A stretch of 20,000 nt of DNA from contig QPGO01000291.1 of NCBI GenBank assembly GCA_008632985.1, positions 50,265 through 70,264 on the forward strand, in the 5' to 3' direction. Position 1 is the stretch's first letter. Every line of letters starts with the position of its first letter. A program made the translations under genes and the position numbers. The notes under the pieces are model-generated. The model did not search any database. It was not told the DNA's origin and saw nothing but the letters and a program-made list of their open reading frames with translations. This document shows, piece after piece, positions 1 through 20,000 of this stretch. The stretch is from Psammoneis japonica. Its lineage: Eukaryota.

Positions 1-699
1 ATCTCACACCCATCTTGTTTGCAGCTGGGAGCTGCAAAAAGCACAATGAGACTGCATTGTGTCATGCTGTGCCCAGCATGCCCAGCTGAGAAATGTTGCA
101 AAATGTCACACTGCCCTCTGCTCTTGAGAGAATTGTGGTTGTCTGTCTGTCCATCAGCAACAGCACTCCCTGCAGCTGGTCTTTCTTGTGCATTGGATGG
201 TGTCAAGTGCTGTCATGGTGGGATTGTTCTTTTTGACACACTCAGATTTGATCACAATTTTTCTACTTTGCAATCATGACAACAATGTTGGCCATTTTTG
301 AGGCTGTTTCTAAACCCGTTTTGTCTGCTTTGAGGCAAAACTGGCTGAGTTTGCTTGCCTTGTCAGAGCTGAGACATGTGGTGTGATTGAGTGGGTCAGA
401 AAGTTGTCCACCATTTGCAATGGCCAAACAATCTCAAGAGAATGCAAGTGCAATGTCAAGGGCATTGGGTGGCAGAAATCTGAACACTGAAATGTTTGTG
501 CAACATGGACTTGTGTTGTGGAGACCTCCAGTGCACGCACTTGCATGAGAACATTTGTTCTCTGTGCACAGACAGGTGCCAAGCAGTGCATGGGACCATG
601 TCCCAAGCAGCTGTTGTTCTTCAGACAAAACAGCTCAGGGTCCAATCAGCCCATGTTGCTGGTCAGTTTCCTGTCCTGTTGTTGCAACATCCCTTCTGT

Positions 700-2632
700 G
701 TGCCACTCATGCAACAAATTTTGCAACAATGATTTTTTTCTAACACATTTTTGACAAATTTCCATCCAACAGGGTCTTCATGCATTGAGAGCACACTGCA
801 TTGTACCCCAACAGAATGGGAAGAACAAAATGTGGTGCACTGATTGCCGTGCTTGTTGGCAACACAAAACCCTGCTTGTTGGTGACACTTGGAACAACCC
901 TGCAAACACATTGACCTCAGTTTTGAATTTTGAATCTTAAACACAGTTGAGCAAAATGAGTTGAAGATGATTCATTCATTGGCTTCTGGTGTGAGACAAG
1001 CACAAATGTCTGAGTCATGCAATGAAAGAGCCAAATCAAATGCTGTTCAACAGAGTGAAGTGTTGAACATGAATTGGAGCAGGTCTCTCTGACAAAGATG
1101 TTGGTGAGTTGAAAGCACAAGAGCTCAAGAGTGGCAGACATTAAAAGATCATGACAGAAGAGCAGAGGCAAGGAAATGGAACACAGGCCTCAAAACTGCA
1201 CAGCTCATTGCGGTGTGCAAACAACCTCAGCAGAGCCCTTGTCAAGACATTTGAGGGACAATCACTTGGACTCACATGGGCCAAGATTGAAAGGGGCGTG
1301 GTGTGCTCCTGACACACGTTCATTTCAAAGGTGAGTCAAATTGATCCTTGGGGCAACATTTGCTCAAATGTTTGCAGGCAGGGCAAGTTTGTGAAGTTCT
1401 GTCTGACAAGCCCTTGTTTGTGCAAGCTGGTCAGTCACTTGTTGATTTTGCAGATGATGGCCTGGGCTGATGGAGTGCTGAAATGCTTGGCAACTGATGA
1501 AGCAGGAGAGTTTGCTGGCAATGAAGCTGAGTTTGTCAAACATGCACAAAAAATGAAGATCCAACTGTGTGAAACAGAAGAAAGGAGAAAGAGTCAAAGT
1601 CACATGGCTGAGCAGAAAACCAGTTTCTTGGAAAAAAGGTTGAGACTCAGAATGGCCAAAAAGAAAGCAGCAAAATGTCTGTGGGATTTCAAACTTGTTT
1701 GCTGGGCAGCTGTTGTGCATGGCATGCAGAAAAGACCAATGAACTGGGTTTGAAGAAATCACTGGACAGATGCCTGAGATTGGCAAAGAACAACTGGATT
1801 GTGAATCTTGTGATTTCCTTTGGTGGTAAATTTGCCTTGACAAGCTGAGTGTTGCTGGTGATCTGAGGAGAAGGTCTGAGCATTGGCTTGGCACATTACG
1901 CAGGGTCTGTTGGCTCAGTTGTGCACAACTGGTTGACTGCTGAAAGTGGTCAGCTGGCATCCAAGACCTTGGTTGAACACATGGCATGTGAGGATTGCTT
2001 GAGGCAGTCTCAGTGATGACATCAAGAGAAGGGTTGATGGCCTCAATGGCAAACTTTAATCTTGGCTTGATGACATGAACAAGAACCCATTTGATCCAGT
2101 GGAAGATCACTTTGCTTTTGTGTTTGATGATGTTGTTCCAATGAAAAATCCAGAGCACCTTGCAAAACTGGAGTGACACATGCAGATCAGAAATGTGGCA
2201 ACATGTTGCCAGAAGAGAGACAAAAGACAAGCATTTGGGCACAGAACACAGAACTTGCTTTTGATGTGTGGAAAATGCTGAAAGGAAAGGGATTGCAACC
2301 ACATGTTCTTGTAGAATTGATGGGCAACCAGTTGGTCACATGCACACTTGAGCCCCATTTTTGACACCTGAGAGCACAAAGTCACCCACACAAATGGGTT
2401 GACAGATGAGTGTGCTGCAGGTGCAATTGCTGAAACCTCTTTGAGCAGGTTGACAGTGTTGGGCATCATTGCTCAATTTTGAACAAGATGCAAAATCATT
2501 GCAAGAGTCAGTCAGTGATGCTTGTCTCAGCAGTGGAAAGATGGCTCAACAGAATGAACTGAAGTCAAGGATTTGAAAGCATCTGACCTGACTGAAGTGG
2601 CTGAGCATGCAGCTGCAAATTGGATTGCTGAA
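700..2632 (+). mobile_element. Degenerate Ty1/copia retrotransposon fragment A (pre-integrase region, integrase core and post-integrase linker)
   Basis: Frameshifted motifs typical of diatom copia pol: ARKWNTGLKTA, PRLKGAWC, GNICSNVCRQGKF, LATDEAGEFAG...ETEERRKSQSHMAEQ...LWDFKLV, TGFEEITGQMPEI, WLTAESGQLASKTLVEH, QWKDGS...DLKASDLTEVAEHAAANWIAE. Similarity ends abruptly at about 2632. The left boundary is approximate. Confidence 0.85.
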
Positions 2633-2633
2633 A

Positions 2634-2877
2634 TGAACAAATTGCAATGCAGTCAGCAACAATGCTGCACCAACAGACAACAAGGATGGGTGAGACTGCA
2701 ACATCAACAACCTCTTGCATCTCAGAAGATTGCAAGCCTTTCATGCAAAGAAGCCTGCCTGCACACACCAATTGGAGCACTCACACCAAGGTTAGACTGC
2801 TGCATCAAGCTTGGCTTGGTCCCCATGAAACAGCTGTGCTGTCGCTAATTTGAGCACTTGCAACAACCTCTCTCTTT
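2634..2877 (-). repeat. Putative polypurine tract and 3' LTR of copia fragment B
   Basis: On the minus strand, downstream of the RNase H stop, AAAGAGAGAGG (2877-2867) is followed by TGTTG at 2865. The sequence runs to a CA near the junction with fragment A. There is no second LTR copy in the window to confirm it. Confidence 0.45.
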
Positions 2878-2987
2878 GGGAGAGGCAAAACACTGAACCC
2901 AGAAGTTGTGGCCACTGGCTGCCTGCACTGGCCTGGGAGGCCAGCCAACATGCATGAGCTGCAGGCATGCGGCCTTGGCTGTTGGGG

Positions 2988-4350
2988 TCACAACAAAACA
3001 TTTGCACACAAGTTCCAGTGCCATCTCCCAAAACAGCCAATGACCTTTGCAAGCAAGTCCGCCAAGTTTGCACCCACATGTCTTGTTTGGCCATTCAAAC
3101 AATTCCAGCCACAACTGCTCCCCTGGTCACATGACAATTGACCATGTTGTCATGCTTCTTGTGCAATGCTGACTCTGGCACACTGAGATTCTTCACAACA
3201 CCATGGTTGTCACAAAACACATTTGCCAGTCCTCAAATCAGAGCTTCCCCCAAGCATCTGCAAATTGCACACAAGACCAACAACAATGTCCCCAAACAAC
3301 TCACTCCCAAACATTGTCAACTCAACCCCATTCTGCCTGTCACCAAACCACATTGTCAGGGCATTTTTCACAAAGACAATGACGCCCAACCAAGTGCAAC
3401 CTGTCAACAACAAGAACATTCCCAGCATGATTTGTGTCAACAAAGGCATGAACAGTCACCAGATTTGCAGAATTGAAAATTGATTTGTCACAAGCTGGGT
3501 CCTTTGGATTGCAACCAAGCAGTTTTTCAATGTGTGCCCCCAAGTGTTCATTGCTTGGTTTTGCCCAACGCTGAGACAAGACAGAGACTTGTGAAAAAAA
3601 TCAATGCACCCCAACTCTGTTGCTGATCTGCAGATGCCAGTCAGCTGCAAATGCTGAGACAACAAATCCAGCCATGGCCCAGGCTTGTCAGACACACCCA
3701 GCTCTAACTCACATGCTTGGATGACAACACTCCTTTGATGTTGTTCTTGAACACTTCGTCATTGTCATCCTCTCCCAACAACCTTTCTGCCATTTTGAAA
3801 GCATTCTTGTTGACATGCAGCCTCAGAGAACTGGCCCAAATCATCCTGCCATCCTTGGTTTGTGTGTTTTCCATGTCAGCTTCCAGACACATGGCCAGCT
3901 CACCCTTGCTCCCTTGACAACAACCTTGTCCTGATGAGATGTGATCATCACGTTGAACATGCAAAACATGCAAATGGCACTTGTGCACATTGCTGCATGT
4001 TGTTGCTTGAGTGCCCATTTTGGGGTCAGCCCCAAACAGTTGGCTCAAAACACAAATCACAAAGAAGTGCAGCAAGTGCCAACCACTGCAACAATCCAGC
4101 ACTTTTGAGATCATGCAACACCCTTGCCACAACAAGTGCATGCCCTGTGCTTCACCACACTCCTGTCTGCCTTTGCACCAGATCTTTCCCTCACACAGTG
4201 CATTCAGACACACATTCTCCAAGTCAATGGTTGTGACATCTGCATGTTCAGAGTTGGCACCAATGCAAGCCAAGTGTCATGATGTCTTTCTTGATGCCAT
4301 GCTTGAGCAAGCAATGGATGCTGGTGCTTCAGCTGTGTTTCCACCCACCT
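2988..4350 (-). mobile_element. Degenerate Ty1/copia fragment B (reverse transcriptase and RNase H)
   Basis: RT motifs: GGNTAEAPASIACSSMASR and DLENVCLNALCEGKIWCKGRQECGE. RNase H motifs: VTVHAFVDTNHAGN, GVIVFVKNALTMWFGDRQNGVELTMFGSE, CDNQGVVKNLSVPESALHKKH, NLADLLAKVI. Many stops and frameshifts. Confidence 0.9.
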
Positions 4351-5349
4351 GCCACACTGCAGAGCAAGCAACAAATGTCAAAACCAATTGTTTTGACTGC
4401 AGACACCAGCACAAATTCTGTGAGAGCAAGCAAAAAATCTTCAAAGATGGAGACATTGAGAGTCTTGAACTCTGCAAAAGTGCATCAAGTTTAAAAGTCA
4501 GTTTTTGGCAATGGCACATTTTTGACACAGCAAGCCCCTTGCAGAGATCCAATTGTCAGGTTTTCAACATCACCAAACAAACCACATGTTTTTGCTTGTC
4601 TGCATGTGTTCAACTTTGCAGCCACCAACTCATTTTTGGCACTGCAGAGAAGTTGCTTTGTTGTGGAAAAGACAAAAAACAATGATGTACAGCACATTGT
4701 TTGACTCATTTAAACCCTTGTTGGAGATGGATTAATGATCTGCCTGTTGGTGACACCATTGCATTGCCTTTCATTCCGGTGGTCTAGTGCACTGCAGCCA
4801 CCGTGAACATTTTGTCTTTTGACATTGTGTTGCCCCCAAAGTCTTGCACATGTCAACATCAATGGCACAAATGGTGGCACAGGCAAGACATGTCAGACAG
4901 CAACCACTGCATTTCATGGAGCTCTCCACTGCCTTGCAAGCATTGTAAAGACAAGCCCATTTGTTGCCATTGCAGTGTGCAGCTGCTGTGCTGCATGGCT
5001 GTGTGAAAGAAACAACACTGAACAATCATGACAGGTTGAGGTGCATCATTTTTTGATTGATCAGCAACCTTCTTACATCGAAGAATCAAGGCACCATCTA
5101 AATTTTGTGACACGAGTTTTAGAAGCAGCTTGCAGTGCAACTGCTTTGTTTGTTGGAAATCATCTTTTGAGGTCGTGACACTTGTTTTGTTGCACAGCCA
5201 CACAAGAGACATCATGATGTCACATGAGCTTCAGCAACCCAAACAAGCAGTCTTTTCACTTCAAAAGGCTTGGCACTGTGCTTGACAGAAATTTGACCTT
5301 GTGGCTTTGTTGGCAATGATTGCATGTTTTGCCCATCAACTGCCATTTG

Positions 5350-5555
5350 AATGCTGCTGATGCCATTGTTCTTCTTTACAGATTGCTGGCATCAGGACAA
5401 TCTGATGACATCTGGGACAGCAGATGGCAATTGTGTGCCAGAGAAGAAAGAAAGTGAGCAAAGGAGAGATCAGCAGATCTCTCCACTCTGTCCATGCCAG
5501 TCTGTCTGACACAAGGGAGTGTGCTCCCTGTCTTGGATGTCTGTCACCCTCCCCT
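5350..5555 (-). repeat. Putative polypurine tract and 3' LTR of copia fragment C
   Basis: On the minus strand, AGGGGAGGG (5555-5547) is immediately followed by TG at 5546, about 140 nt after the RNase H end and a T-rich 3' UTR. The distal LTR end is uncertain. Confidence 0.6.
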
Positions 5556-5687
5556 GATGAGCAGTGCAAGGCTCGCCAATGAAAAAGAAAGAGAACATCA
5601 AAAAAAAAAGAGAGAACCAGAACAGCAGAACAAAAAACAGGACCAAGAAAAAAATGCCCAAGACTTGATCCACAAACACCACAACAA

Positions 5688-6460
5688 TCAACAGCGATGT
5701 CCCGCCATCAAGTGGTGAGCATGGTGGGAATGGAGCATCCAACCCACAGCCTTGGTCAGCACTTCAGCAGGGTCAATGACACCCAGAACATGTGGAGTGA
5801 CAATTTCACCTGCCTCCTGCCAGCAGTCTTGGACAGCAAAATGTTGAATGTCAATGTGGCGGGAATGCTTCGTGGGCACCTTGTCATTGACCATCTGGAC
5901 AGCAGAGGAGTTGTCAATGTGCAAGGGAGTGGAGTCACATTGGAGAAATCCCAGCTCTTCAAGTGCCATCTGGAGGTGCAATGTCTGCTTCACAGCAGTG
6001 GCACTGGCCAAGAATTTGGCTTCTGCAGAGCTGGCAGCTGCAATTGTCTGGGTCCAGCATTGACAGCCAATTGCAGCACCAGCAAATGAGAGCATGCATG
6101 TGTCCAGTGGCAGAATGGCACTGCCAAAGTTCACTGGCATGTGCTGCATCAATGAAGCCAAGGAGCTGGAAACAATCTTTGGCATGGGGGAATTCAGGCA
6201 AAGAAGGATCAGGTTTCAGCTGTTCAAAGGACCAAGGAGGGAGACCTGGATCATGTGCAGTCTTCTCATGCATCAACCCCCAATGTTTGGTGCGTGCAAA
6301 CACTTTGCCATTTGCTTGAGAGAAGTGCAGTGAATCTCATTGGAGTTCTTGGAGAACTTCAACAAGGTCACAATGGGACAACCAACATCCAATCAACAAC
6401 AAGTGTGCACAAAAAAAATAAATTCACCCAGAACAGGCCCATGGGAGAAACCCTGGGAAG
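5688..6460 (-). mobile_element. Degenerate Ty1/copia fragment C (RT C-terminus and RNase H)
   Basis: Motifs GFSHGPVLGEL, DVGCPIVTLLKFS, RTKHWG, LLGFIDAAHASELWQCHSATGH, TQTIAAASSAEAKFLA, HIDNSSAVQMVN, SRHIDIQHFAVQD and VLTKAVGWMLH match Ty1/copia RNase H. Confidence 0.92.
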
Positions 6461-9400
6461 CCACTCACAAACATTCCTTCCAGCAATGCCATTGGACTGG
6501 CTGGCTCATCTTTGTCCAGCCATTCTCTGGTCAGTTTCCCATTGCAGACCATGCGTCCCTTGATCTGACTGTCTCATTTTTCCATTGAGGAACATTGAGG
6601 CACACATGGCATTGGTCCTCTCACTTGGAGTTGTGTCTTTGACAGATTTTGGTGCAAAGCACACTCTGTCATGGAGTTGTTTCATCTCCTTCTTGAAGGC
6701 ATCATGCCCCTCCTGTCTGAATGCTTTCAGGCTTTTGTGCAGTGGGCACTGTTGGGCAAACAAAATGCCCTTTCTGGAAGAATGGAATCTGTCATTCTTT
6801 TTCAGACATAAACTGTGCCAGTGCCATTGCCAATTTAGAATTGTGCTCAATGTCTTGTTCTGGGGTTTGGACTTGCATTTGTTTGCAAGTGATGGCAGTG
6901 CTCAAGTTTGACAACATTTTCCTGCTCTTCTTTGGCACTGGTTGCTCCTGTGAACCTTGCTGTCTTCTCATGTTTCTTGTGCCTTTGTGCAAAAGACTTC
7001 CCAGACCTTGCAGTCCTGCCAGTTGCATCATTGGCTTCTTCTTCTTCTGTTCTTTCTTCAGGTCCCATGCTGTTTTTGTGGGATTTGTCATCATCTTGTG
7101 TGTCATCAGCATTTTTGCAGCCATCTTCTTTGTGATGGTTAAGATTCTCATCATCAGACTCTGTTTCTTTGTCATGCTGGTCAGGATTCTCATCTTTGAA
7201 CTCTGTTTCTTTGTCATGCTGGTCAGGACTGGACTTTTTGCCAGCTGGGATGTCATTGGCTTCTTTGCATTCTTTGTCTGAGTCCACTTCATTGCAGTCT
7301 ACATCATTGTTGTCTTTGCTTTCTTTGTCATTGCATTTGTTGTCTCTGTCATTGTTGTGGTCTTGTTCCACTCCTGCAGTCCAACCAGCATCCAAAAAAT
7401 TGTCTCTTCATTTTCCTGTGAATTTAAAATCTTTAACACCCTGGGCCAATGCCATTTTCAATGGCTCTGACATGGGTGTTGGTGAGGGGTGCAGAGGTGC
7501 ACTTGTGGGGGCAAAGAAGTTTCCCAGTGTGCAAGTTCCTCCCTTTGGATGGTCAAAATGTGGGTGCTGCAGATGCATGCTGTCAAGGCCCCACATTTCC
7601 ATTGTGTTTGTGGGATTGTTCTCAACATGAGACAAAAAAATTCCCCAAATCAAAGCTCAAAATGTTCAGCACAGTCAAGAACCCGGCACTCCACAATGGT
7701 GGACTGCAGGTGTCCAAGATGCCTTCCTTCTCTGCAGGCACATGTTTGCCATGATGGTGCCCTTGACAACTGCATGCTCACACACAAGCCTGGGCACAGC
7801 CTTGAAATGCAGGTGATGTGAGGTGGCCCAAGTTCTCTCCTTGATGGTTTCAATGCTGTGCTCAACCTCTGGTGCATGATCACTGGTGTTCATGGGCATG
7901 AGTTCAAGGTTCATCCCATCAGCCACTTCAGCAAGCATGGCCTTGAATTTGGGGTTGCATTCAATGAAGTTGATCTTGAACAAGGCTTTGTCACATTGAC
8001 ACATCACCATGTCCAATGACTCACACACATCTGTGTGTCGCTTGGATTTAAGCTTCATGCTTGAATGATGCTTGATCGTCTTGTCAACAGCGCATGGCAG
8101 TTGAATGCTGCACACCTCACTCAATGATGTTGATGCACAGGGTCACACCTTCCCTCTGTTTTTCACAGATCTCAGGTGGTGTCGCAATTGTGTCACACTC
8201 ACATGAGGTCAGTGTGTGCATTTGGTCTTGCCTCTCAGAAAATTGACAGGTGGTCCCCAGATGTCCACTGTTCTGTCCATGTCCTGCAGCAGGTTGGACA
8301 AGTTCTTCACCAGATTAGATTGCAGGAATCACTTGAAATCCCTGACACTGGGTGTTTCAGTCTTGTGATGCAGGCCCATGGTGTCATGTTTCACAGTCAG
8401 GACAACAGCTCCTGATGCACTCTTGTGCTTCTTGTTTGTTTTCATGGCGTGCTTCTTGGCTGTCATGCTGACTTGTGACTCTGCTCTTTGTGCAGGTCCT
8501 TGACATGATCAAAGAACTTCTGGCTTGGTGCAAATGTGTGCAGCCCAATGTCATTTGCTTTGAATGCTGCAACTTGGTTGCCAGTCTTCTTGTCCAGCAG
8601 CCAGAACTCATCTGCCACCACTTGATTGTTGTGCATCATGTGGCACTTGGCCTTGAGACCACATCCTGCAAGCTCAGGATGTTTGCCATTGTGTGCTTCA
8701 ATCCCAACTTCATGTCACCCCATCCTGGCATGGTGCAATCCTTGTCTGGGGTGTCCACTCCTGCATTTGTGGACAGGTCAGGTCTGGCTCATGCTCATCT
8801 CTGGTTGCTCCTTGACCAGTTACAACCCATGCCATGCAGCTCCCCTGCTCCAGCTCAAAACAGTTTAATCTTGTTGATCTGGTGGTGTTGACACTCACAT
8901 TGCTGTCCACCAAAGAGAGGTCTGCATCACCTCTCTCATTTGCACATGGCTCTGTCCCATTGTGCCCACTTTCTTTCTGGTCGCTCTTCTTGAACCAGTC
9001 TTTTGCTGCCACCTTGTCCTTGTGTTTGCACCCCCCAGGAATTTGTGGTCTTCTTTGCCACAACAGTGGCATGTTGTCTTCTTGCCTTGTTGTGTGCCAC
9101 CCATCTGGGTGTGGGTCTAGTTCCTGGTTGCATTGCCATTCTTGTCCTTCCCATTGCAATTGTCTTGATGGTCAGAATTCTTCCTTCTCAGTTTGTCATC
9201 CCACTCATGATTCAGCAGGGCATCCATTGCTCTGTTCAGGTTTTTTGGGTGAGTGTTGTTTCCCAGAATGCAGTTCCTCACAAAACTTTTCTTTGGCAAC
9301 TTACAGCAATGGTCATCCCTGTTCTCAATGAACAGATGAGCAGACCAGGCCTCAAATGCCAGCTTCTTCAGCTCTTCTTGTTTGTGATTGGGACTTTCCT

Positions 9401-10168
9401 TGTGCTCCTTGGTGTTCTCAATGAACCCATTTAGCATCTCACTGCCCAGACCATCTCTGGGCTGGTGGAGTCTCGCTGGTTCTTGAATCTTGACAGGTGA
9501 CAACAACAGACTCATTTTCTTGTTGTTTCACTTGCAGCACATTCTTGAGCAACTTTGTCAGCATGTGGAACAGACAACGACCCCTGGCAGTGTTGAATGT
9601 CAGGGAATGCATTGGTTTCAACAATTTGATTGGGTCATCCCTGATCTTTTTGCAGCTTGGATCACCCAGAACCCTGGTCCTCACATGGTTTGCACAGCAG
9701 CAGTCATCCAGGATTAAGGTGAATGCCTTTGATTTGTTCTCCTTGAAGTGCTTCAGTTTTGTGCAAAAATTCTTGCACATGGATTGGCACTTGCATTCCA
9801 ACTGCTTGTTGTTGTGCTCCTTCTGTCTCACATCATCATCACATGCACTTGAGTCTTTCTTGAGTTCAATTGCCAACTGTTTGAGTTTTGGCTTTTTTCT
9901 TCTTGAAGTCAAGGTGCTTCACATCCTCCAAGGACCTTGCTGTGCATTTGCCCTGCTTGAAATCCTTCTCTGTGTGTCTGCAGAGCTTCCTCTTGATGTC
10001 TTCATTTGTTGCACTGTGTGTGTTGCTGTTCAGGGTTGAAGGGTGGAACTTCATCTTGGGTTGAAAGGACTTCTTTTTCTTGGTGTGGCTTTCATTACCT
10101 CTGCCACCACCATGACCCTTGTGTTGGTCACGGCCTCTTCCATGCCTTCCAGGTCCTCTGCCACACAT
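6461..10168 (-). mobile_element. Degenerate Ty1/copia fragment D (gag, zinc knuckle, protease region, integrase, acidic linker, start of RT)
   Basis: The domain order fits copia. Gly/Arg-rich gag start (ATG about 10168); gag KIRDDPIKLLK and AFEAWSAHLFIEN...GNNTHPK; knuckle CHCCGKEDH (about 9075-9045); STNAG...MANILSL; WGPPVNFLRGKT; integrase DHAPEVEHSIETIKER; RT start KKEMKQLHDRVCF...IKGRMVCNGK...ASP. Truncated at about 6460. Confidence 0.92.
7110..7228 (-). repeat. 42-bp tandem repeat (2-3 units) in the acidic integrase-RT linker
   Basis: gattctcatc at 7143 and 7185, and ctctgtttctttgtcatgctggtcagga twice. Encodes PDQHDKETEFKDEN-PDQHDKETESDDEN. Confidence 0.9.
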
Positions 10169-10899
10169 GGTGCAGAAATCAATGATCATGTGGTCTTCTG
10201 ATGAGATGGCAAGCACTCAGCATGTGCAAATGTGACTCTTTGGAGTGAGTGTTGAACCAATGAGTCAATGTCACCAAAAGGGAATCCTGCGAGGCTTCCT
10301 GCGCCACTCGTTGCACTTTCCCTGGTCTCTGTGTTTGCCATGGTTTGCCTCACATCTAATGCAGAATGTGTGCCAATGGATTGTTGGATGTCAACAGACA
10401 CCACTTGTTGCTCTCAACAGTTTGGATGACAATCCAATGACAATCCAAATGATTCACTCCAAAGAGTGAGCATAAAAAGTTGGTGAGATTGAGATTGATG
10501 ACAGAGAAAATCCTCCAAAGAACAGTCATCAGCCCACCACATCAGGATTCAAAAGATGCAACTTCATTTCCAGGTCACTCTGTGCCCTCAAGCTAGATGC
10601 TCTGACATCAAGTGCCCTGACAAGTTCCTTCAAATCAATCAAAACAGTGGGTGCAGGTCAAGCACTGGATGCATGCTTTGGAAAATGTGGTGCACCAGAG
10701 AATTCACTCCAATTGCAAAAGGGATGTTTCATTTGTGGATCAAAGTGTGTGGGCAATTAACTCCAATCACAATCACCACCTTTGTGCAGTGTGGTTGAAG
10801 AGCAAGTTGAATTTTGCAATCCAACATTTGACAAGGCAAATGAGGACACAAATCATCAATGTCTGCCAAAGCTCATGCCTTGAGCACAGAGCTTTCTTG

Positions 10900-11410
10900 T
10901 CAAGTGATGCAACTGTGGAACATTGGAAGGGTCAACAGCAGTTGCCAGCAGAACAAGCTTGTTGACAAGAGAATGTGACTCTGGAACAATGCACAAACAT
11001 CATCCTTGGATTGAGCATGTTTTGGGTCATCAAAGAACTGATCCAGATCAAATGTTGCATGGCCACAAGTGTCGTTGTGTTGGTGAACAGTGCATCATTG
11101 AAACACAAGCTGCATCTTGGCAAGGGCATCAAAGATGCTCTTTGCTGTCTTGGGGTTCACCACAGTTGAAGTGCTCAATGTTTTTGGTCATGAACACACG
11201 GAAGTGTGGCACACTTCAGTGGGAAATTGTGCACAAATGACAACACTTTCAGGATAAAAAAATGCAATGGACTTGCTCAGCTCACAAAACCCAAGTGAAT
11301 CAAGGGAGGAGTTGAGGCACAGCAGATGCGTGTGCTGCAACAAGGCCACAACCTGATGGAATGGCAACAGCAAGAGTGTCAAGTGCAGGGAACCTCTCTG
11401 CAAACCAGTG
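10900..11410 (+). mobile_element. Possible degenerate DNA-transposase C-terminus (piggyBac-like)
   Basis: Across frames: DQML, KMLFAVLGFTTVEVLNVF, then RCVCCNKATT*W...KCREPLC, which resembles a terminal Cys-rich domain. The evidence is weak because Cys is inflated by the local composition. Confidence 0.25.
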
Positions 11411-12129
11411 ACAGAGACAACACATGCACCAGCAAGAGCAAGTGACAAACAGATCTCAGAGAGACATGTGCTCATCTGTCTGAGCCTGATGCCTGACCAT
11501 CATCTGCCCAAAGTCCAGCCACACACACCAGGGCAGATCAACTGACACTTGTGGCAAGTTCTGGACAAATCCAAAGAAAACTAAAGAAAACCCTGCATCT
11601 TGCCAGTGCCTTCAGAGAAATGAAACAGACAATTCTTTTTTAATGATGACATGGATTTTGCTGCATTTTCACAAATGTTGCATTTAAATTTGTTTGTTCT
11701 CAACAGATTGGGGGGAGTGGAAACCTTTGCACAGAAAGCCAAGACTCTTTGCAGTGCCAAGTGTTGGGCAGACTTGCTTGGGTTGGCAAGCACAGCACCA
11801 GAGAGAGGCAAACTGGAGGATGATGAGGAGGAGCAAAAGGAAATGAGAGTCAACTTAAGAGCATGGAGCATTCATCATGGAAATCTGCAATCTGCCACTT
11901 TTGGAAAGTCCAGGAACAACCAGCAAACCAGGTTGCTCTTGTCTCCAAACATTTGAGTGACTGCTTGGGTTGCTGATTGCAGAGGCACCCAGACAAATTC
12001 TTTCCACAAAGAGATGTTCACGTGGCTTGGGATCCTCTTCTTCACCTCTGAACATCAAGACGACCAATGAGAGCCAAGGGGTTGCTCCCTGGTGAGGTGT
12101 TGACATTGCACTTCCAAGGAAGGGAGTGT

Positions 12130-13014
12130 TCTTCAATGCCGCAGCCCCAAAATCTCAGTTGCAACAGGGCTCAGCTGCCCTTGAAAGGCAGTGTGTGTGG
12201 GTTGACTGCTGCCGCTGCAACTGCTGCTGCCACTGTCATTGTGAATGCCACCATCACAACTGCTTGCCATTGCAGCTGCTGTTGTTGTTGCAGCTGCTGC
12301 TGTTTTGACCACTGACATTGTGCAGCTGCTGCTGCAGTTTGCAGCTGGCACACACACCATTGCAACAGCTGCTGTCATTTTCACTGCTGCACTGTGGCTT
12401 CTGCCATTGCAACCACTGCCATTGCAGCTGCCATTTTTGTGACTGCCGCCATTGCGACTGCTGTCATTGCGACCACTCTTGCAAAGAGATGGCACTCAGT
12501 GGAGCAGGGATTGCAAAGGCAGTCAATCACAGCCAACTGCTTCTGTTGCAAGGACTGCCATTTCTGCTGCTGCTGCTGCTGTTGTGACCACTCCTGCCAT
12601 TGTTGTGACCACTCCTGCCATTGTGACTGCTGCCATTGCAGCTGCCACTGCTCAGATTGCTGCTGCTGAAGCTTGGCTGTGCTTTTGCTTTTTGCATCAA
12701 TTGGTGGCAAAATTCTCTCCACATCTTGCTCATTCTTGAAATCCCATTTTGCCTGCCTGCACCCTTCCTCTGTGTCTGGCACCCTCACGCAAGTGCTCCT
12801 TTGCTTGTTTGCTGTGGCACTCAATTCTGCCACCCTCTCCTTGAGCATGGCAAGCCTCCTGCCTGGGGCATCCAAAAGGTGGGCGCATTTTGCTTTCGTG
12901 CCAACTCTTCTTCTTTAGCATCACACTTAGCCCCAAACAGGGCTTCTTGTCCTTTGGCATGGGTGACTCTTCTGTCAGAGCCCTTTCCACTGCCAACGCT
13001 GCCGGTTCCGCCAC
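12130..13014 (-). pseudogene. Probable degenerate coding sequence with a Ser/Gly/Asn-rich low-complexity tract; origin (host gene or TE) unknown
   Basis: Protein-like, frameshifted segments AEPAALAVERALTEESPMPKDKKP, LKERVAELSATANKQR and DFKNEQDVERILPPID, followed by repeated S(C/H/R)NG units. Confidence 0.4.
12200..12670. repeat. Low-complexity triplet-based repeat (GCT/GCA runs, CTGCCATTG units)
   Basis: Multiple ctgccattg(c) copies, a (tgc)n run at about 12565-12580, and ttgtgaccactcctgccattg twice at about 12582-12623. Confidence 0.85.
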
Positions 13015-13019
13015 GGTGA

Positions 13020-13135
13020 TTGGTGCTTCACATCCGGCCTACTTTGGCGTGTTGGAGTCGAGTTAATCAAATGACGGCTGGCGACGGGCGGAGCGCGGTG
13101 CCGTCCGGCCGGTAATACAAAGTAAGGTTTTAGCG
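13020..13135. promoter_or_regulatory. CpG-rich segment at the domain boundary, upstream of VTA1 (candidate promoter or boundary element)
   Basis: 13 CG in 120 bp (gcgacgggcggagcgcggtgccgtccggccgg), directly adjacent to the CpG-free domain. The function is inferred only from position. Confidence 0.35.
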
Positions 13136-13432
13136 ATAAAACACAGAGCCTGAGAAGGGTAGTCGAACTCATTGTTGCTTGTTCGAAGTTGGCTAGAGAC
13201 GCTTTGGAGCCCATTCACTCGCTAAATTGTACGTTCCATCTTCTGATTCTCGCGGGTCAACTACTTACCTGGGTCAAACTGATGCAGGAGTGCGTCGCGC
13301 TGTTTTTTCCTCGATGTTCGAGAATTTCTGAATCGTGTTTTCGTCTCGTTGATTTGTTCCGCAACAAAAGCTCTCTCACTCTGCATCTGTTCATATCAGC
13401 ATATAGATTGAATACAAGTTTTCATTGCAATC

Positions 13433-14454
13433 ATGCCTCTTTCTATTCCACTAGAATTGAAAAAGATCACTCCCTTTGTGAAACGAGCCGAAGAGTTGGA
13501 TCGTGACAAGGCCAATCCCGAGTCCCGTCTCGTTGCCTATTATTGTCGTCAATACGCGGTCCATGTCGGAATTCCCCTGGCCTCGTCGTCGCCGGCTGGA
13601 AAGACGTGTTTAGGAACTCTCTTGGGAGAATTGGAAAAAGAAAAGGAGGCCATGAGCAATTTTACCCGTGACGAATCCAAGTATTTGTGCCGTACCTTTG
13701 CCGACAAGGTGTTTGACAAGGCGGACGCGGAGGACCGAGCGGGTGCCGCGACAAAGGCCACGGCGAAAACCTTTTATGCGGCAGCAACCTTTTTTGAAAT
13801 TTTGCAACAATTCTATAAAGAAGGAGAAGAACCAACGGCGGATCAAGAAGAGGAGCGAAACAAGACGGTGTATTCCAAGTGGAAAGCGACAGAAATTCTG
13901 AAGGCAATCAAGGAAGGGAGACAGCCGACTCCTGGTGGGTACAATGAAGAAAAGGACGCAGAGGAGGAAGAGGAAGTTGTGGAGGAGGAACAGCAAGGAG
14001 ACGATAAGGAAGAAGAAGGACCTTCAGAGGAGGACGAACCCGTGGAGGAAATGGATGAGGCGCCGCCCGAGGAGCAGCCTGAGGATGAGGATGAAGGTAC
14101 TGAAGTTGAGCTTCTTGGCCCGCCTCCTGAATACCCTGGTGGGACTGAATCATCACCTCCAGAAGTCTTTGTGGATGATCGACCGCCGATTGCCCCTCCA
14201 ATGGCTCCTCCGGAACCTCCGTCGTTTCCTGTTGCCCCAGTTGAGCCAGCGGCACCACCACCGGCCGCAAGTCGTCAAACAAGTGGTTTGGACCCAAGAA
14301 GAAGAACAAGGCTGCACCACCCGGTCGTGTATCGAATGACGCAATAGAGGATGCCAAGGAGCTGACCAAGTTTGCCTTGTCGGCGCTGGAAAGCAAGGAC
14401 GTGGAGCTTGCGAGTTCACGACTGCAACAAGCATTGGAAGCTTTGGGTCGGTAG
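13433..14454 (+). CDS. VTA1: Vacuolar protein sorting-associated protein VTA1/LIP5 (Vps4 cofactor), with an apparent -1 frameshift near 14245-14285
   Basis: N-terminal tandem MIT region (ITPFVKRAEELD...VAYYCRQYAV...FADKVFDKADAEDRAG...TAKTFYAAATFFEIL...YSKWKATEILKAIKEGRQPTPG) and an acidic/Pro-rich linker. The C-terminal VSL domain (AIEDAKELTKFALSALESKDVELASSRLQQALEAL) lies in the -1 frame and ends at TAG 14452-14454. Confidence 0.93.
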
Positions 14455-14616
14455 ATACCTGTTGGAATCCTTTTGTGGTTCTTTGCCTCGTATCATTGTG
14501 GAGTTCGACATGAAACTCGTCAATAGACGAATGAATGCTAGAGTGTTATCTACTGTACTCTAGAGAACACACGGTCTGGAATCCTTTACCTAATTTTCTT
14601 CTCTAATTTTCTCACG

Positions 14617-16311
14617 TCAGATGCTTGCTTCATCGGGCGTCTGCGTTTGCGACTGCTTCAGAATCGAAATCTTTCTAGTGCGAAAGTAGTTTGCTTCCAA
14701 CAGCTGAATGACTGAAGTTGTTGACATGTCCTCGACACTTATATCCTCAATGGCCACAATGACATCACCACTGTGGATGCCTTGTGAGTTCCAAATCGAT
14801 CCGTCCTTTATGTTTGTTACAACCAACTTGTATCCGTCAGACTTTATGGACAAGCCAATCTCTCCGGGTGGGATTTCAACGTGGTGTAGTTGTTGCTGTA
14901 TTTCTTCAGTCGCACGATATCCATAGCAATGAAACTCATCACTGGGACAACTAGACTGCGACGAAACTGACATTGTGCTGACACTGTCGCCATCATGCAT
15001 CTCTTGTGCATGTACCCAGAAGGATCCTTCTGTACCAGCACTACTCTGTGATAGTGACATCTCATCCGCATCGAAGTTAATGATTATGTTGCCGGCATGG
15101 CATGGCTGTTCATCCACAAAGTACTCATTAAATGGTGTATGTTGGGTCTCGCCTCTTGATACGGATGGCTGTTCATCAACAAAGAATTCATCCAATGGCG
15201 TATATTGAGTCTCGCCTCTTGATACGGATGTGGTTTGTTCAATCGGTAAATGAACTGTTGACTCTGAAGCTTTTTGCCAAGGCTGGTGCCGAGAAATATT
15301 TGTTGCATTTCTATCAGAGTGCGTCAATCTTGGGCTGACCTCTGCGTCGGTGTTACGCCGGCTTACACTGAAAATGTCGTGGGAGTAGATTTATTGGCAG
15401 AGCTGTTTCTATTTCCACTTGATTCTGTGCTCCGACCTACTATACGATTGCTTACTGGCCTTGTTGGAAGGTACAGCTCTGTTGTTTCCAGCCTCCGGTA
15501 CCCTGTTTCCGCTCCACGCGATCTAAATCAACAAGAATACAGCAACAGGTAAGATGCACGGGATGGGCACAAGAAGCGCCAGCCAGATTATTTCGTTTAC
15601 CGACCTTCTTCGCTTGTGAAGAAACCCTCGACGACTTTGTTCAAAATGTATCAAGAGACCAACACTCACACCACCAAGGAAACAAACCAGCAGGATTGGT
15701 GGGCGGTCTCGTGCAGAATCAACCTCGGAAGCCTTGGTGAGCGACCGCGATATCAACTCGACATGACTTGTATTTTCAAAGTAAGATAAGCCAGTATCGT
15801 GTAAGTATCCAACAAAGTGGTCGCCCGACAAGTTGAACATTTTCGTAATCTTGTTTCGAATCTTCTTCTTGCCTGAAACGTCTTTGACGGACATCTCCTC
15901 AAGTGAGACCTCCGTTTTCACTCGAATCCAAGATAGCGCTCTGTTGTTCCGCAAGTTGCTACTCTCAAATCCTTTGTTCTTCTCAAGCCTCTGATCCACG
16001 AGACTGACGCGAAGGCTGCTAACGTTGTTCAATTCATCAAGGACGTAGTCTTGTAGGAAACGTTCACACGCTCGAGAAAAATGCTTTTCTTGTTCATCAT
16101 TCATCTCGTGTTGAACAGCATCGAGCAGCAAAACCATGGTGGACGAGACTGAAGATGAGCCTTCATTATCTTTGGTACGAGAAACTGAGTTTGAGTCCAT
16201 TGTTCTATTTACAAAGTTGGGACCTCTAATGTTGGACTTGGTTTCCAATCTTTTGCCTAGACAGGAAAAGACGAAACAAAGTAAAACTGAAGAGAACAGC
16301 CGCGCCTTCAT
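14617..16311 (-). CDS. Predicted single-pass membrane protein with a C-terminal PDZ domain (joins ORFs 16353-15523 and 15327-14617)
   Basis: Signal-like N-terminus MKARLFSSVLLCFVFSCLG, then TM ILLVCFLGGVSVGLLI followed by basic residues. Plausible 82-nt intron 15604-15523 (GTCGGT...CTTAC...TTTAG). PDZ: IPPGEIGLSI...VVTNIKDGS...IHSGDVIVAIEDISV. The join near 15370-15310 needs a second intron or a 1-nt indel. The PDZ call is firmer than the join. Confidence 0.7.
15102..15230 (-). repeat. 63-bp in-frame tandem duplication inside the PDZ gene
   Basis: Encodes SVSRGETQYTPLDEFFVDEQP and SVSRGETQHTPFNEYFVDEQP; atggctgttcatc occurs at 15102 and 15165. Confidence 0.92.
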
Positions 16312-17033
16312 GGGTTGCACTTGTATTACTCTTCCTTGTCTATAGACTGTCATTGCGTGTTATGTTTTGCTTCCTCTCGCCTCGAAAATAAACAAGATGG
16401 CGAATCTTTGCTTCCTTTCGGTTGGGCACCCCATTTTGTGAGCGTTGGAGACGATTTTTCAAAGTCAATGCGGAGCTACAGTACCGTGTCGTAGGGCCCT
16501 ACGTGGACTGTACGTACAGAGGGTTCGTACGAGATACACAGCACAGTTTGTTCAATATTAAACATATAACATATTATGGGTAATCATTCTTTAATAAAGC
16601 TTTGTGCATTTAATTTCAAAAACAGCTCCGATGATACATGCATCGGTCGCCACGTCCGTAAGATTTGTCGAAGTATCCAATGAATATAAATATTTCAAAT
16701 TTTTGTCGAATTTAAATCTTGACTACGAATAAATTTTCCATAAATAAAGGAATATTCAGACTCTTGCACATCATAAATGTCTTTAGAGTAATACAGACAC
16801 GAGGACAATCAATCATCCGTTGGTTTGCAAGTTTTCCCGCGCAAAGCATTCACCGCCACAACAAGACTCGCCTCATTTTTTTTTGCCTCGTGGTCGTGGT
16901 GTGATGCACACAAAAAGATTGGTTGACCACGACTCTGTTAAATGTTATCCCTCACTGTTGCGGCATCAAGTGATTGCTAAAATATTTGCAAAGTTGTCGA
17001 GAGGGTGACGAGTCACGTCTCAAGTTCCAGATC

Positions 17034-17828
17034 ATGTCGCACCATAGTGGTCATGTCAAGAGAAATGCTTCAGGCTCACGAAGTGGGTCAAACGAGGATG
17101 AGAATCCTTTAGCAATCCCGGACGCTGGCGTCCAGTACAATTTCCAAGGGCACTCTGGTTCTTCCCAGAATACCGGACTGCAGAGGGCGGAGGCAATGTT
17201 TGACACCGTTTTTGGTCCTTGTACCGGCGGATTTCGAGCAGTGACATCATATTTTTCTGAAAGGCGAGCACAATCGCATGACCATCCCGAGACACTGTCC
17301 CAGCTTTTGCGTAAACAATCAGGAGGCAAGAAACCGGTGCAAGCGAATCAAAGACCAGGCCTTCAAAACCGAACAGTGGATGTCCCAATCCACTGGGGAC
17401 AAAAGGACAAGTCATTGCATGATGGGGCCGGAGCTGTCAGGTGCGACGATTCCGCGATATCAGCGATATCAGCGTGCACCCTAGATGAGATGGCGCAACA
17501 TCACCATCCAAAAGTGATGCCACCACGCACAATACGTGAGAGACCGCCTCCAGTAACAACTTCTTTCCTCAAGAGTCGAAGCAACGCTTCACGTGGATCT
17601 TACCGCAGCAGTGAACAACCATCTTTGGCCGCGACTGCGTCAGGATCCTCGGGCGCAACAGATAACGATAGATTCAGCTGTGCTGTGCCGGCTATATCCA
17701 ACGAAATTGCTTGGGTTGACTCTTCCGGGAATGTAGACAGCATTCGCAATGAAGAAATAGCGATTGAAGTGATGCGGGAGCATGATATAATCATGTCCGA
17801 GTTAGCCGCCGGGGAAGCTGAGATATAA
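17034..17828 (+). CDS. Hypothetical protein (264 aa), Ser-rich and probably largely disordered
   Basis: Long open frame from ATG 17034 with normal composition and AT-rich flanks. No recognisable domain. Confidence 0.75.
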   Translation: MSHHSGHVKRNASGSRSGSNEDENPLAIPDAGVQYNFQGHSGSSQNTGLQRAEAMFDTVFGPCTGGFRAVTSYFSERRAQSHDHPETLSQLLRKQSGGKKPVQANQRPGLQNRTVDVPIHWGQKDKSLHDGAGAVRCDDSAISAISACTLDEMAQHHHPKVMPPRTIRERPPPVTTSFLKSRSNASRGSYRSSEQPSLAATASGSSGATDNDRFSCAVPAISNEIAWVDSSGNVDSIRNEEIAIEVMREHDIIMSELAAGEAEI

Positions 17829-18231
17829 AACAGGACGTGCTATATTGGAACAAGTTCCTACAGTATAAAATAACGATATTTTATTAACTACCAAACTCAT
17901 TGCAAGATGCATAAGCGCTTCCTCTGTCCTATCTGTACTCGTATGGACTGCCACACCACTGGTAACAAAGCAAGACACGCGACGTCGAGGTGCAACAGAT
18001 AGAGAAACACTTTGTAGCCTCTCTAGAGTAGAGGGGAGTTTACATTATAAGCAACCAAATTTGCAAAGATTTTTGAAAAACACAACTATCAATGTTCAAG
18101 CTAATATCTTTTTTAAGATTCTAAAGAGGACCTGCGCTTACTACTCACGCAGGCGACCACAACATTACCACTAAACACAAAAGAACTTGTCATGCGAGCA
18201 ACGTATCCAGGTGGTGGAAACAAAGCAGCAA

Positions 18232-19186
18232 TCAGATGAATGGCGGTGCGGGCGGTGGACCAGATGACACGCTTGAGCGTGGTTTGATCAAAGGACTACC
18301 ACCGACACTTCTTGCTGACGTGCTTCGCGACGCACCCAAGCAGTGGGGACTGTTCGGCAGGCTTGACACCGCGCCAGGGAGCTTGTACTCATAGACAATT
18401 GGCTCATTCCGTGGAGAATGAGGTACCCCCGAATCGCTTCCCCAACTCATTGATCGTCGCCTCCATTTATCTGGCCGCTCGCCGGCCGGGTGACTCACGT
18501 CGTAATAGTCACTCTCTTCCAAATGTAGGTTGATTTTCTCAATGATGAACTTGCCCTCCTTGTACTTCTGACTAGACTCGTATGCCTTTGCATACGTCCA
18601 CCCCACCATTCCCTTGCACCGCTTGCAGAATATATCACAGACGCTGTGCAGGCCTGTGATGAGCAGTCGATCCTCTGCCGGACCAATTGTAATGTTCACG
18701 CACTGGTCGAATAGGTAAGCGCGACCTGACAATTGAAACATACAGCAGACTAGCGTGAGAACCAGCGTCTAACTCATCGAATAATAAAGTACTGGGACCA
18801 GCTCGGAATCAAGACTCACCATGGCGCCCGTGAAAGCTCTTGGAAATGATATCGTCGTGGCTCGTAAGGTGCGTACGGCACTGGCCACAGGTATATATTT
18901 GAGGTCCGTCAAGATATACCATTGAATCATTTTCTTTTCGCGCATTTTCTCCTCTGGCTTTGGCCAAAGCCTCAGACGCATCGCTAATGGACTTTTTGCT
19001 CCCCGGAGAAGATACAAAGCGAGGAGATGACATTGAAGAGCTTTTTCTTCTAGTGGCAGCGGGTGATCTTGGTGAAAACTTGAAAGCACCTTCTGTGTCG
19101 CGAGATCTTGATCGAGAACGAGATCCAGGCACTGGCGATATCAGCGATACCTCCGTAGGAGGTCTCACTGCGGTATGGCTGCTCAT
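18232..19186 (-). CDS. YPEL: Yippee/YPEL-family zinc-binding protein, 2 exons (19186-18820 and 18725-18232), 286 aa
   Basis: [31 protein letters not shown]...[44 protein letters not shown] 94-nt intron 18819-18726 (GTGAGT...TGTCAG) joins the exons in frame (861 nt). Confidence 0.96.
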
Positions 19187-20000
19187 GACGGGAGAAGATG
19201 AGTGATGTCTCGTGCGGTGCTGCCGAGCGATCGAAGGAGACTGATCGTCAACACGAACGATGTTGGCAACCCAAACAGATGGCTAACTGGTGCGGATGTA
19301 GTCCCGGTGCGTGGCGAGGCTTGCGTTGCACGGGACGAGCTTCGATTGACTGAACTTTGTGTGTGCCCTAATCGATGGCGCGTGTGAGCAAGAAACCATT
19401 AGTGAGAACGTGGAAGGCTCGAGCTCAAGCAAGGTGCCAGAATATGTTGCAACAAAAACAGACTCACCGTCCCTGTATGCCATAATCAAAGTGCGCTTTC
19501 AAAGAATGCGATGCCACTTTTCGAAAGCAAATCAAACAAGTCGTTATGCTTATCAAAACTGGACAAGAGCAAGAAGCAGGGAGGAAAGTAGATTTCTTCG
19601 TCGCAGATAAGAATGGTGTTTCTTCTTTCTTCCCGTAACGAAAATCGGGGCAGGAGAACTTAACAAGAAGAAGCAAGTAAGCAGGAGATGGAAAGACAAG
19701 TGAAGTTAGTTACACGTTGAGACTAAATATGCAGGAAAAGTTCTGTTCATGACGTACGGGAATTGCGGAGCACCGGGGGAGAGGAATTCGCACCACGAAG
19801 ATAACGTGATAGTTCTTCAAGGTCTGCAATTCTTATTCACCCCACTTCTGAGTTCCAAAAGATTGAGAATAGAGGAAATGATGTTGTCCTGGATCTGTCA
19901 AAATAGGAAGCGAATGAGATAGAGAATGAAGTGTGAGCGAAGAGACAACACACTGTGATTTTTTGTTTTGATGGGAAGGAAGAAAAGAGAGGAACACGAA

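Follow-up and report, generated by a model that had tools for sequence, protein, structure and literature searches.

The stretch of DNA analysed here, referred to below as the window, comprises 20,000 nucleotides of the Psammoneis japonica assembly GCA_008632985.1 (contig QPGO01000291.1, positions 50,265 to 70,264 of the forward strand). Its left part, 12.95 kb or more in length, is a block devoid of genes in which nearly every TA step has become TG or CA, and nearly every CG step has gone the same way. Embedded in this block is the degenerate body of a copia-type long terminal repeat (LTR) retrotransposon, which often carries histidine or cysteine where its relatives have conserved tyrosines. 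To the right, the block gives way to ordinary DNA with a gene of the Vta1 family, followed by PDZ and Yippee genes, all with normal dinucleotide frequencies. The positions of the features are collected in Table 1.

Within the block, the ratio of observed to expected counts (O/E) is about 0.05 for TA, about 0.05 for CG, and about 2.0 for CA and TG. With the flank frequencies as the expectation, 50 TA steps were counted where 514 would be expected, and 52 CG steps where 701 would be. The share of CA plus TG among the dinucleotides is 0.235 in the block and 0.142 in the flank. Both the sum of the four pyrimidine-purine steps (0.2425 in the block vs 0.2361 in the flank) and the guanine plus cytosine (GC) content (0.467 vs 0.472) are unchanged. 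Therefore, TA and CG have been converted to CA and TG. The other dinucleotides are little altered, and the stop triplets, summed over both strands, amount to 697 TGA, 58 TAA and 23 TAG.

The 50 surviving TA steps differ in context from those of the flank. After strand symmetrisation, 58% of them stand in TAA/TTA (flank 22%) and 4% in TAT/ATA (flank 32%), and 16 of the 50 lie in TTAA. This suggests a preference of the mutator for certain flanking bases, or else a recent re-creation of TA.

The block ends abruptly. There is no TA at all between 12001 and 12900, the first ones reappear at 12916 and 12928, and CG is dense from 12997 on, with 12 CG steps in 13001-13100. From 13,000 onwards, the O/E values are ordinary (0.45-0.73 for TA, 0.82-1.13 for CG). 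This edge lies about 0.45 kb ahead of the Vta1 gene and does not coincide with the end of the element. The TA loss is limited to the block and the neighbouring genes are spared, as in the hypermutation known from the alga Bigelowiella natans, which is discussed below. Just within the edge, at 12100-12700, the DNA is of low complexity and rich in GCT/GCA. Both of its strands have long frames rich in Ala, Cys and Gln, and it contains weak internal repeats (12257-12313/12534-12592 and 12398-12433/12612-12647).

Relatives of the element were found by a HMMER search of 1.84 billion proteins, with the minus-strand frame 5962-8142 as query and X at its stops, which returned 206 proteins at E<=0.001. 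A profile built from 14 of these led to 118 further full-length polyproteins, with a median length of 1638 aa and a median tyrosine content of 3.9%. The RVT_2 domain (PF07727) is present in all 118 added polyproteins and in all 120 relatives listed; among 15 relatives scanned separately, six matched it, five of them at or above the Pfam cut-off. The window was then compared with a full-length profile of the 118 and, by tblastn and phmmer, with 271 relatives. The element is colinear with 255 intact relatives: gag is followed by protease, integrase, the beginning of the reverse transcriptase (RT) and RNase H, with the integrase ahead of the RT as in Ty1/copia elements. The RT core is lost, as the profile skips from position 1177 to 1490 (about 300 positions), and several frameshifts interrupt the element. 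Pfam matched no such domain in the window itself; the element's RT core is deleted, and its RT start aligns to relatives that bear RVT_2. The Cys columns of the zinc knuckle hold Cys in 89 of 89 relatives. Those relatives that carry an organism name belong to the diatoms Nitzschia sp. Nitz4 and Fragilaria crotonensis.

An initial annotation of the window, made from its letters alone, had described four separate copia fragments, A to D. For C and D the copia type is borne out, and their separation is not: because the matches to the relatives form one colinear series on the minus strand, from 10,216 down to 5,691, the two are a single element, which runs past the end of the annotated span at 9400, to 10216. 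Neither blastn (word size 9) nor a transition-blind purine/pyrimidine coding revealed a direct repeat that could be an LTR pair, and the ends of the element are probably truncated. When 1-13,001 was translated in all six frames, with stops set to X, Pfam detected no domain of a transposon. The same held, at E<=0.05, for the stop-to-stop frames of 55 aa or more, of which 150 of 154 were scanned (all but the last four, at 12733-13214). A word-indexed search of the RNase H frame against longer proteins matched nothing.

Table 1. Features of the window, strings quoted in the initial annotation, and tyrosine-poor relatives of the element (ORF, open reading frame).
Feature	Position or identifier	Strand	Evidence or remark
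TA/CG-erased block, CA/TG doubled	1..12950	.	continues past the window's left end
Sharp edge of the erased block	12916..13000	.	TA/CG positions
Degenerate copia-type LTR-retrotransposon body (fragments C and D)	5691..10216	-	tblastn, phmmer and profile matches
gag region with zinc-knuckle remnant CHCCG (9071)	8898..10216	-	three ORFs, E 1.2e-07 to 3.3e-18; knuckle ORF E 0.0029; full-length profile positions 2-379 on 10216-8898
Protease region	8639..8788	-	full-length profile positions 466-506 on 8788-8639
Integrase region	6850..8328	-	ORF 7678-8142, E 3.8e-23; full-length profile positions 603-1035 on 8328-6850
RT start, contains MVCNGK	6427..6901	-	E 1.4e-19 and 1.8e-10; full-length profile positions 1070-1177 on 6901-6427
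RNase H region (SATGH, DIQHF, HHAHH)	5691..6336	-	relative P0071 E 1.6e-30; 7-sequence profile E 1.2e-29; full-length profile positions 1490-1581 on 6215-5691
Fragment A, possible integrase and RNase H remnants	1313..2850	+	no significant match; TA O/E 0.052
Fragment B, possible RT and RNase H remnants	3100..4276	-	no significant match; TA O/E 0.012
Flanking gene, Vta1 family	13412..14347	+	Vta1 E 8.6e-38; start of the unmutated gene-bearing flank
Quoted strings, plus strand	NVC 1367, AEHA 2600	+	exact occurrence
Quoted strings, fragment B	NVCLNA 4216, ACSS 4312	-	exact occurrence
Quoted strings, fragment C and Arg runs	SATGH 6114, DIQHF 5852, WQCHS 6126, HHAHH 5726	-	exact occurrence
Quoted strings, fragment D	MVCNGK 6552, QQC 6754, CHCCG 9071, AHLF 9341, HPK 9251	-	exact occurrence
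Tyrosine-poor relatives, first part	P0039, P0041, P0055, P0068, P0085, P0087, P0089, P0124		public protein collections
Tyrosine-poor relatives, second part	P0125, P0130, P0137, P0139, P0141, P0152, P0153		public protein collections

In a reading frame, a transition at TA turns TAY (Tyr) into CAY (His) or TGY (Cys), and one at CG turns CGN (Arg) into CAN or TGN. To follow these codons, the relatives were aligned to the window by tblastn, with the 15 of the 271 that are themselves poor in tyrosine dropped. Codon columns from overlapping frames were de-duplicated (1943 to 1440), and a column was counted if it had at least 10 relatives and a majority residue (at least 50%). Tyrosine was kept at none of the 27 tyrosine columns, whereas the conserved residues other than Tyr and Arg were kept at 229 of 375 (Fisher p=3.7e-11). 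The place of tyrosine is taken by His (nine), Phe (seven), Cys (four), Leu (two), and Pro, Ser, Trp, Gln and Gly (one each), the Phe outcomes falling at columns where Phe is common among the relatives too. With at least 70% Tyr, 0 of 11 columns were kept (six His, four Cys, one Phe), and with at least 80% Tyr and n of at least 30, 0 of 7 (four His, three Cys). Columns of His kept His in 10 of 11 cases, and those of Cys kept Cys in nine of nine. A smaller, first set of homologues agrees (Tyr 0/20 vs others 252/387, p=1.8e-9). Sites that are His or Cys in the window are Tyr in the intact relatives, which makes TA the older of the two states, and the direction of change proposed in the initial annotation is the right one.

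That annotation had compared individual strings with a copia consensus, and all strings that it quoted are found in the window. At six of its seven tyrosine sites in fragments C and D, the relatives do carry tyrosine: 8 of 10 at SATGH, 79 of 89 at the His of CHCCG, 82 of 89 at HPK (9251), 55 of 86 at AHLF, and 63 of 83 at QQC. At MVCNGK, tyrosine is found in 44 of the 49 relatives that share the V..K neighbours, while a second subfamily has Ala. The exception is DIQHF, which the annotation had derived from DIQYF and where the relatives have His in six of nine cases and Tyr in one of nine, so that this His is native.

Arginine has decayed as well, in the way expected from CpG loss. It was kept at 12 of 27 Arg-consensus columns, and 10 of 27 show what CGN decays into (three His, two Gln, two Cys, two Trp and one stop). 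In the smaller set, six of the nine kept Arg codons are AGR and three are CGC. Two runs had been singled out earlier as former arginines. HHAHH agrees with this on few sequences, its five positions in the relatives being R (4/5), H (4/5), variable, R (5/5) and R (5/5); for WQCHS the case is weak, as Arg is only the plurality residue at three of four positions (n=11). Conversion of TA into TG or CA can create no stop codon and removes the stops TAA and TAG, while CG erasure turns CGA into TGA. Because TA erasure makes no new stops and TAA/TAG are lost, long Tyr-free reading frames survive.

The two outcomes at tyrosine codons report on the strand that was changed: in the coding strand, Tyr>His arises by T>C, and Tyr>Cys by A>G. 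Both occur within the one element, as the initial annotation had stated, and alternate along it in a ratio of 9:4 (binomial p=0.27). When single-step codon changes were inferred at all mismatching conserved columns, TA>CA amounted to 13.0 and TA>TG to 11.7. Besides the CG changes, given below, there were other transitions (24.3), transversions (51.5) and 64 columns with at least two changes; most of these three classes is family divergence. Block-wide, 1492 CA and 1546 TG follow each other in random order (runs-test z=0.89), with no strand patches. Furthermore, the TA O/E is 0.054 in the element, and 0.055 and 0.049 in the DNA on its left and right. From the balanced and interleaved outcomes, together with the equal depletion inside and outside the element, it follows that chromosomal DNA was changed after the insertion, as had been suggested. 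The depletion also spans DNA outside the element, including the plus-strand fragment A, and therefore editing of the element's RNA, or RT error, is insufficient.

Fragments A and B themselves could not be traced to copia elements. They gave no significant match with the relatives by tblastn (E<=5) or by phmmer with filters off, nor with a 7-sequence RT profile and the 118-sequence full-length profile, and no match among Pfam models or PDB chains. A word-indexed search of the frame of fragment B against proteins of similar length found nothing. Smith-Waterman alignment of fragment B with eight relatives, with 200 shuffles each, gave a best z of 3.4, and 2 of 200 shuffles equalled the score. There are weak leads only: the named Atlas cluster nearest to fragment A carries rve (score 0.90), and those nearest to fragment B carry RVT_2 (0.87-0.88). 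The assignment of A and B to copia, as well as their four named tyrosine sites, come from the initial annotation and are putative. Its claim that tyrosine was lost in all four copia fragments is not shown.

The same tyrosine erasure exists outside the present assembly. The 15 Tyr-poor relatives, taken from assemblies of ENA, JGI and Logan, group into 13 clusters. Their residue at Tyr-consensus columns is Tyr in 3 of 105 cases, and otherwise Cys (37), His (22) or Phe (21) for the most part. Arginine is kept in 84 of 135 cases, similar to other residues (796 of 1266). These Tyr-free or Tyr-poor database "proteins" are hypermutated copia frames. A metagenome scan with the single protein P0153 detected related contigs. 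Three of them, L001-L003, belong to one Tyr-poor family, with a TA O/E of 0.13-0.20 and a CG O/E of 0.70-0.74, and L001 contains a Tyr-free frame of 535 aa without a stop. In L004, a more distant relative, it is CG that is depleted (0.12), with TA at 0.75. TA was lost without CG in L001-L003, and CG without TA in L004; therefore we argue for two separate processes. L001-L003 are near-identical, and of their about nine isolated differences, three are TA vs CA/TG and two are CG vs CA.

The stretch was found only in runs of one sample, and no RNA data set is listed as containing it. Contigs of the run X1, with a depth of 58-76, show two differences from the window over 1-5463, and none over 7205-8527, 8751-9423, 9410-10478 and 10460-12093. 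One X1 contig spans the edge, from 12069 to 19243, with 13 differences and six gaps. The sequence of the block is thus real, being reproduced by X1 contigs across the edge. Contigs of a second run, X2, lie almost only on the flank genes and look like spliced RNA. For example, one X2 contig skips 94 bases (18724-18817) that have GT..AG ends when read on the minus strand, probably an intron of the Yippee region, between the minus-strand frames 18232-18768 and 18809-19282. The PDZ-domain gene of the same flank contains a tandem duplication of 63-66 bases (15102-15230, 88% identity), through which a peptide some 21 residues long occurs twice.

Copy number is only poorly reflected in the depth of contigs. 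With this in mind, the depth summed over contigs at least 80% alike was 75-100 in the bins 1-2668 and 3336-5336 (about 4.7 kb), close to the single-copy level of the window (58-76), and from 172 to about 3700 in the rest of the block, except for two bins near 87. The bins 1-2668 and 3336-5336 are as completely erased of TA and CG as the repeated parts. They could be either old relics without surviving copies, or DNA reached by a process that spreads beyond repeats. No internal duplicates were found in the block by blastn or by purine/pyrimidine coding. Short, very high-copy pieces lie at 5473-5560 and 10261-10262, with summed contig depths of about 3,400-20,000. At 5529-5530 and 10261-10262, the TG of the window is replaced by CA in 24-32 other contigs. 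This is the double difference to be expected of copies in which one old TA or CG was resolved in opposite directions.

Taken as a whole, the replacement of tyrosine by histidine and cysteine is probably the protein-level trace of mutation in chromosomal DNA into which the element had already been inserted. Its direction, strand balance, spread past the element and sharp edge were all observed. The change, a transition from A:T to G:C that affects the A of TA on both strands, ends near an expressed gene. Two processes would be involved. The CG loss may represent the decay of methylated cytosine in silenced transposon DNA, and the TA loss a targeted hypermutation of silent or foreign DNA, as measured in B. 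natans. By analogy with that alga, the simplest chemistry would be that adenine is deaminated in DNA to inosine, which is read as G. Genes would then be inactivated by missense changes and by the loss of TAA/TAG, and not by new stops. The targeting is probably by chromatin state rather than by repeat homology, as suggested by the sharp edge that TA and CG share, and by the about 4.7 kb that sit near single-copy depth.

Several observations weigh against this interpretation. The mutation mechanism for this window is one that we infer. Seven of the 27 Tyr columns have become Phe and another seven other residues, so that some losses go beyond a simple TA transition. The CG outcomes in the codon-level inference (CG>CA 17.0 vs CG>TG 6.5) are less balanced than those of TA, their class being inflated by ordinary conservative replacements. 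A transposon origin is shown for only 4.5 kb of the block, and with about 4.7 kb near single-copy depth, it is not established that the block consists of repeats throughout. Only part of the element's relatives bear a diatom name. Finally, the sample behind X1 is also the one from which the assembly was likely made, so that this run is no independent proof.

Other explanations were considered next to it. Slow, passive decay of unexpressed DNA, for example by a bias of damage or repair at TA without transcription-coupled repair, would fit with a block that appears unexpressed, the spliced-looking X2 contigs being almost confined to the flank genes, and with the mild under-representation of TA in the flank itself. 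We nevertheless regard it as rather unlikely, because the loss is about tenfold, is bounded by a sharp edge and leaves other dinucleotides little changed. Moreover, in B. natans the signature is confined to some lines, where its rate is about 1000 times that of the background, which argues for a regulated activity. A single deaminase that erases both self-complementary steps, acting on the C of CG and the A of TA, would account for two losses that are about equally complete and share one edge, and ADAT2-type enzymes act on both A and C in DNA (cited in the Mettrop preprint). However, L001-L003 have lost TA and not CG, L004 has lost CG and not TA, and the Tyr-poor relatives keep Arg as well as they keep other residues, which makes one common process decidedly unlikely.

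The misreading of TA and CG on heavily modified DNA, as an artefact of sequencing or base calling, would be in line with the origin of all runs that contain the stretch from one sample. Yet the X1 contigs match almost letter for letter, edge included, the amino-acid changes obey the logic of codons, and assemblies of three source collections contain Tyr-poor relatives that have suffered the same loss of TA; an artefact is therefore very improbable. We give even less credence to ADAR-like A-to-I editing of RNA, or errors of the reverse transcriptase, fixed on copying into DNA. Retroelements do pass through an RNA stage, and ADAR-type enzymes prefer U before the edited A (cited in the Mettrop preprint, bioRxiv 10.64898/2026.01.13.699255). 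But the two strand outcomes are similar in number and interleaved without a single-strand bias, the DNA outside the element and the oppositely read stretch are equally depleted, and the sharp edge of the block is not the end of the element. A photoproduct of ultraviolet light at TA steps of silent, unrepaired DNA is not favoured either, as the frequencies of TC and CC are near those of the flank.

The closest known system is that of B. natans. In two of its integrated viral regions, 230 of 231 new mutations are A>G or T>C, all at TpA, and deamination of adenine in DNA to inosine, read as G, is proposed (Mettrop et al., bioRxiv 10.64898/2026.01.13.699255). Furthermore, TpA-poor clusters rich in CpA and TpG are enriched there in reverse-transcriptase and DDE domains (Mettrop et al.). 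As in the window, TA alone is turned into TG or CA on either strand, and foreign or mobile DNA is hit with its neighbours spared. There are also differences. B. natans is a chlorarachniophyte (Rhizaria), whereas the organism-named relatives of our element are diatoms. Its depletion is partial, with a Rho TpA of 0.45 in the viral region, compared with a TA value of about 0.05 in the window. CpG and diatoms are not mentioned in the accessible text, whereas in the window CG is erased too. The rate was measured in B. natans, and here only the end state is seen. A literature search, with subscription journals outside its reach, found this preprint as the one account of TA-restricted hypermutation.

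Other forms of transposon inactivation resemble parts of the pattern. Repeat-induced point mutation (RIP) creates TpA and new stop codons. In fungi it changes C to T mainly at CpA (PMC2621366, PMC7296669). RIP in Neurospora and other fungi, which is confined to duplicated sequence, shares with the window a block-wise hypermutation by transitions, which kills transposons and stops near genes. However, RIP raises TpA, whereas in the window TpA falls to 0.05, CpA rises to about 2.0 and GC is unchanged, and stop codons arise from the erasure of CG (TGA from CGA) but not from that of TA. The animal APOBEC and ADAR enzymes act during reverse transcription or on RNA, are strand-specific and are limited to the element. 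Here too, deaminase-type transitions inactivate a retroelement, but both strands and the surrounding DNA are altered.

The decay of CpG in methylated transposons is the likely parallel for the other half of the pattern, with CG>TG/CA loss and Arg codons turning into His, Gln, Cys, Trp or stop; it accounts for the CG half only. Diatom transposons are indeed CG-methylated, by DNMT5a, in a paper whose accessible part mentions neither deamination nor dinucleotides (PMC9998398). The element itself resembles the Ty1/copia-like CoDi elements of diatoms, which are copia-type with the integrase before the RT (Maumus et al. 2009, PMC2806351). The CoDi groups are defined on the RT core, which is deleted in our element. 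Dinucleotides and hypermutation are mentioned neither there (PMC2806351) nor in the accessible part of a 2025 diatom-transposon preprint.

Our results support the view that the tyrosine pattern is the coding read-out of TA-erasing hypermutation, for which the literature precedent is a single preprint on an unrelated alga. More tentatively, diatoms may have an active enzymatic defence that deaminates the adenine of TA in silenced mobile DNA, a "reverse RIP" working by missense changes. It would be the same system as in B. natans, old in the stramenopile, alveolate and rhizarian lineages, and separate from cytosine methylation; we consider this possible, and somewhat less likely than its opposite. 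There are consequences for annotation as well: TA-erased blocks escape Pfam-level annotation, and long Tyr-free frames are deposited as proteins by gene finders, as seen in 15 of 271 relatives. Polarisation against intact relatives at the protein level is a simple test that can be applied to any genome. If our interpretation is true, targeted TA-erasing hypermutation is not peculiar to one alga, but occurs here, near completion, in a genome with diatom-type mobile elements. It would then represent a new chemistry of eukaryotic genome defence, A:T to G:C at TA, which could be tested in transformable organisms, and the candidate enzyme class would be that of the adenine base editors.

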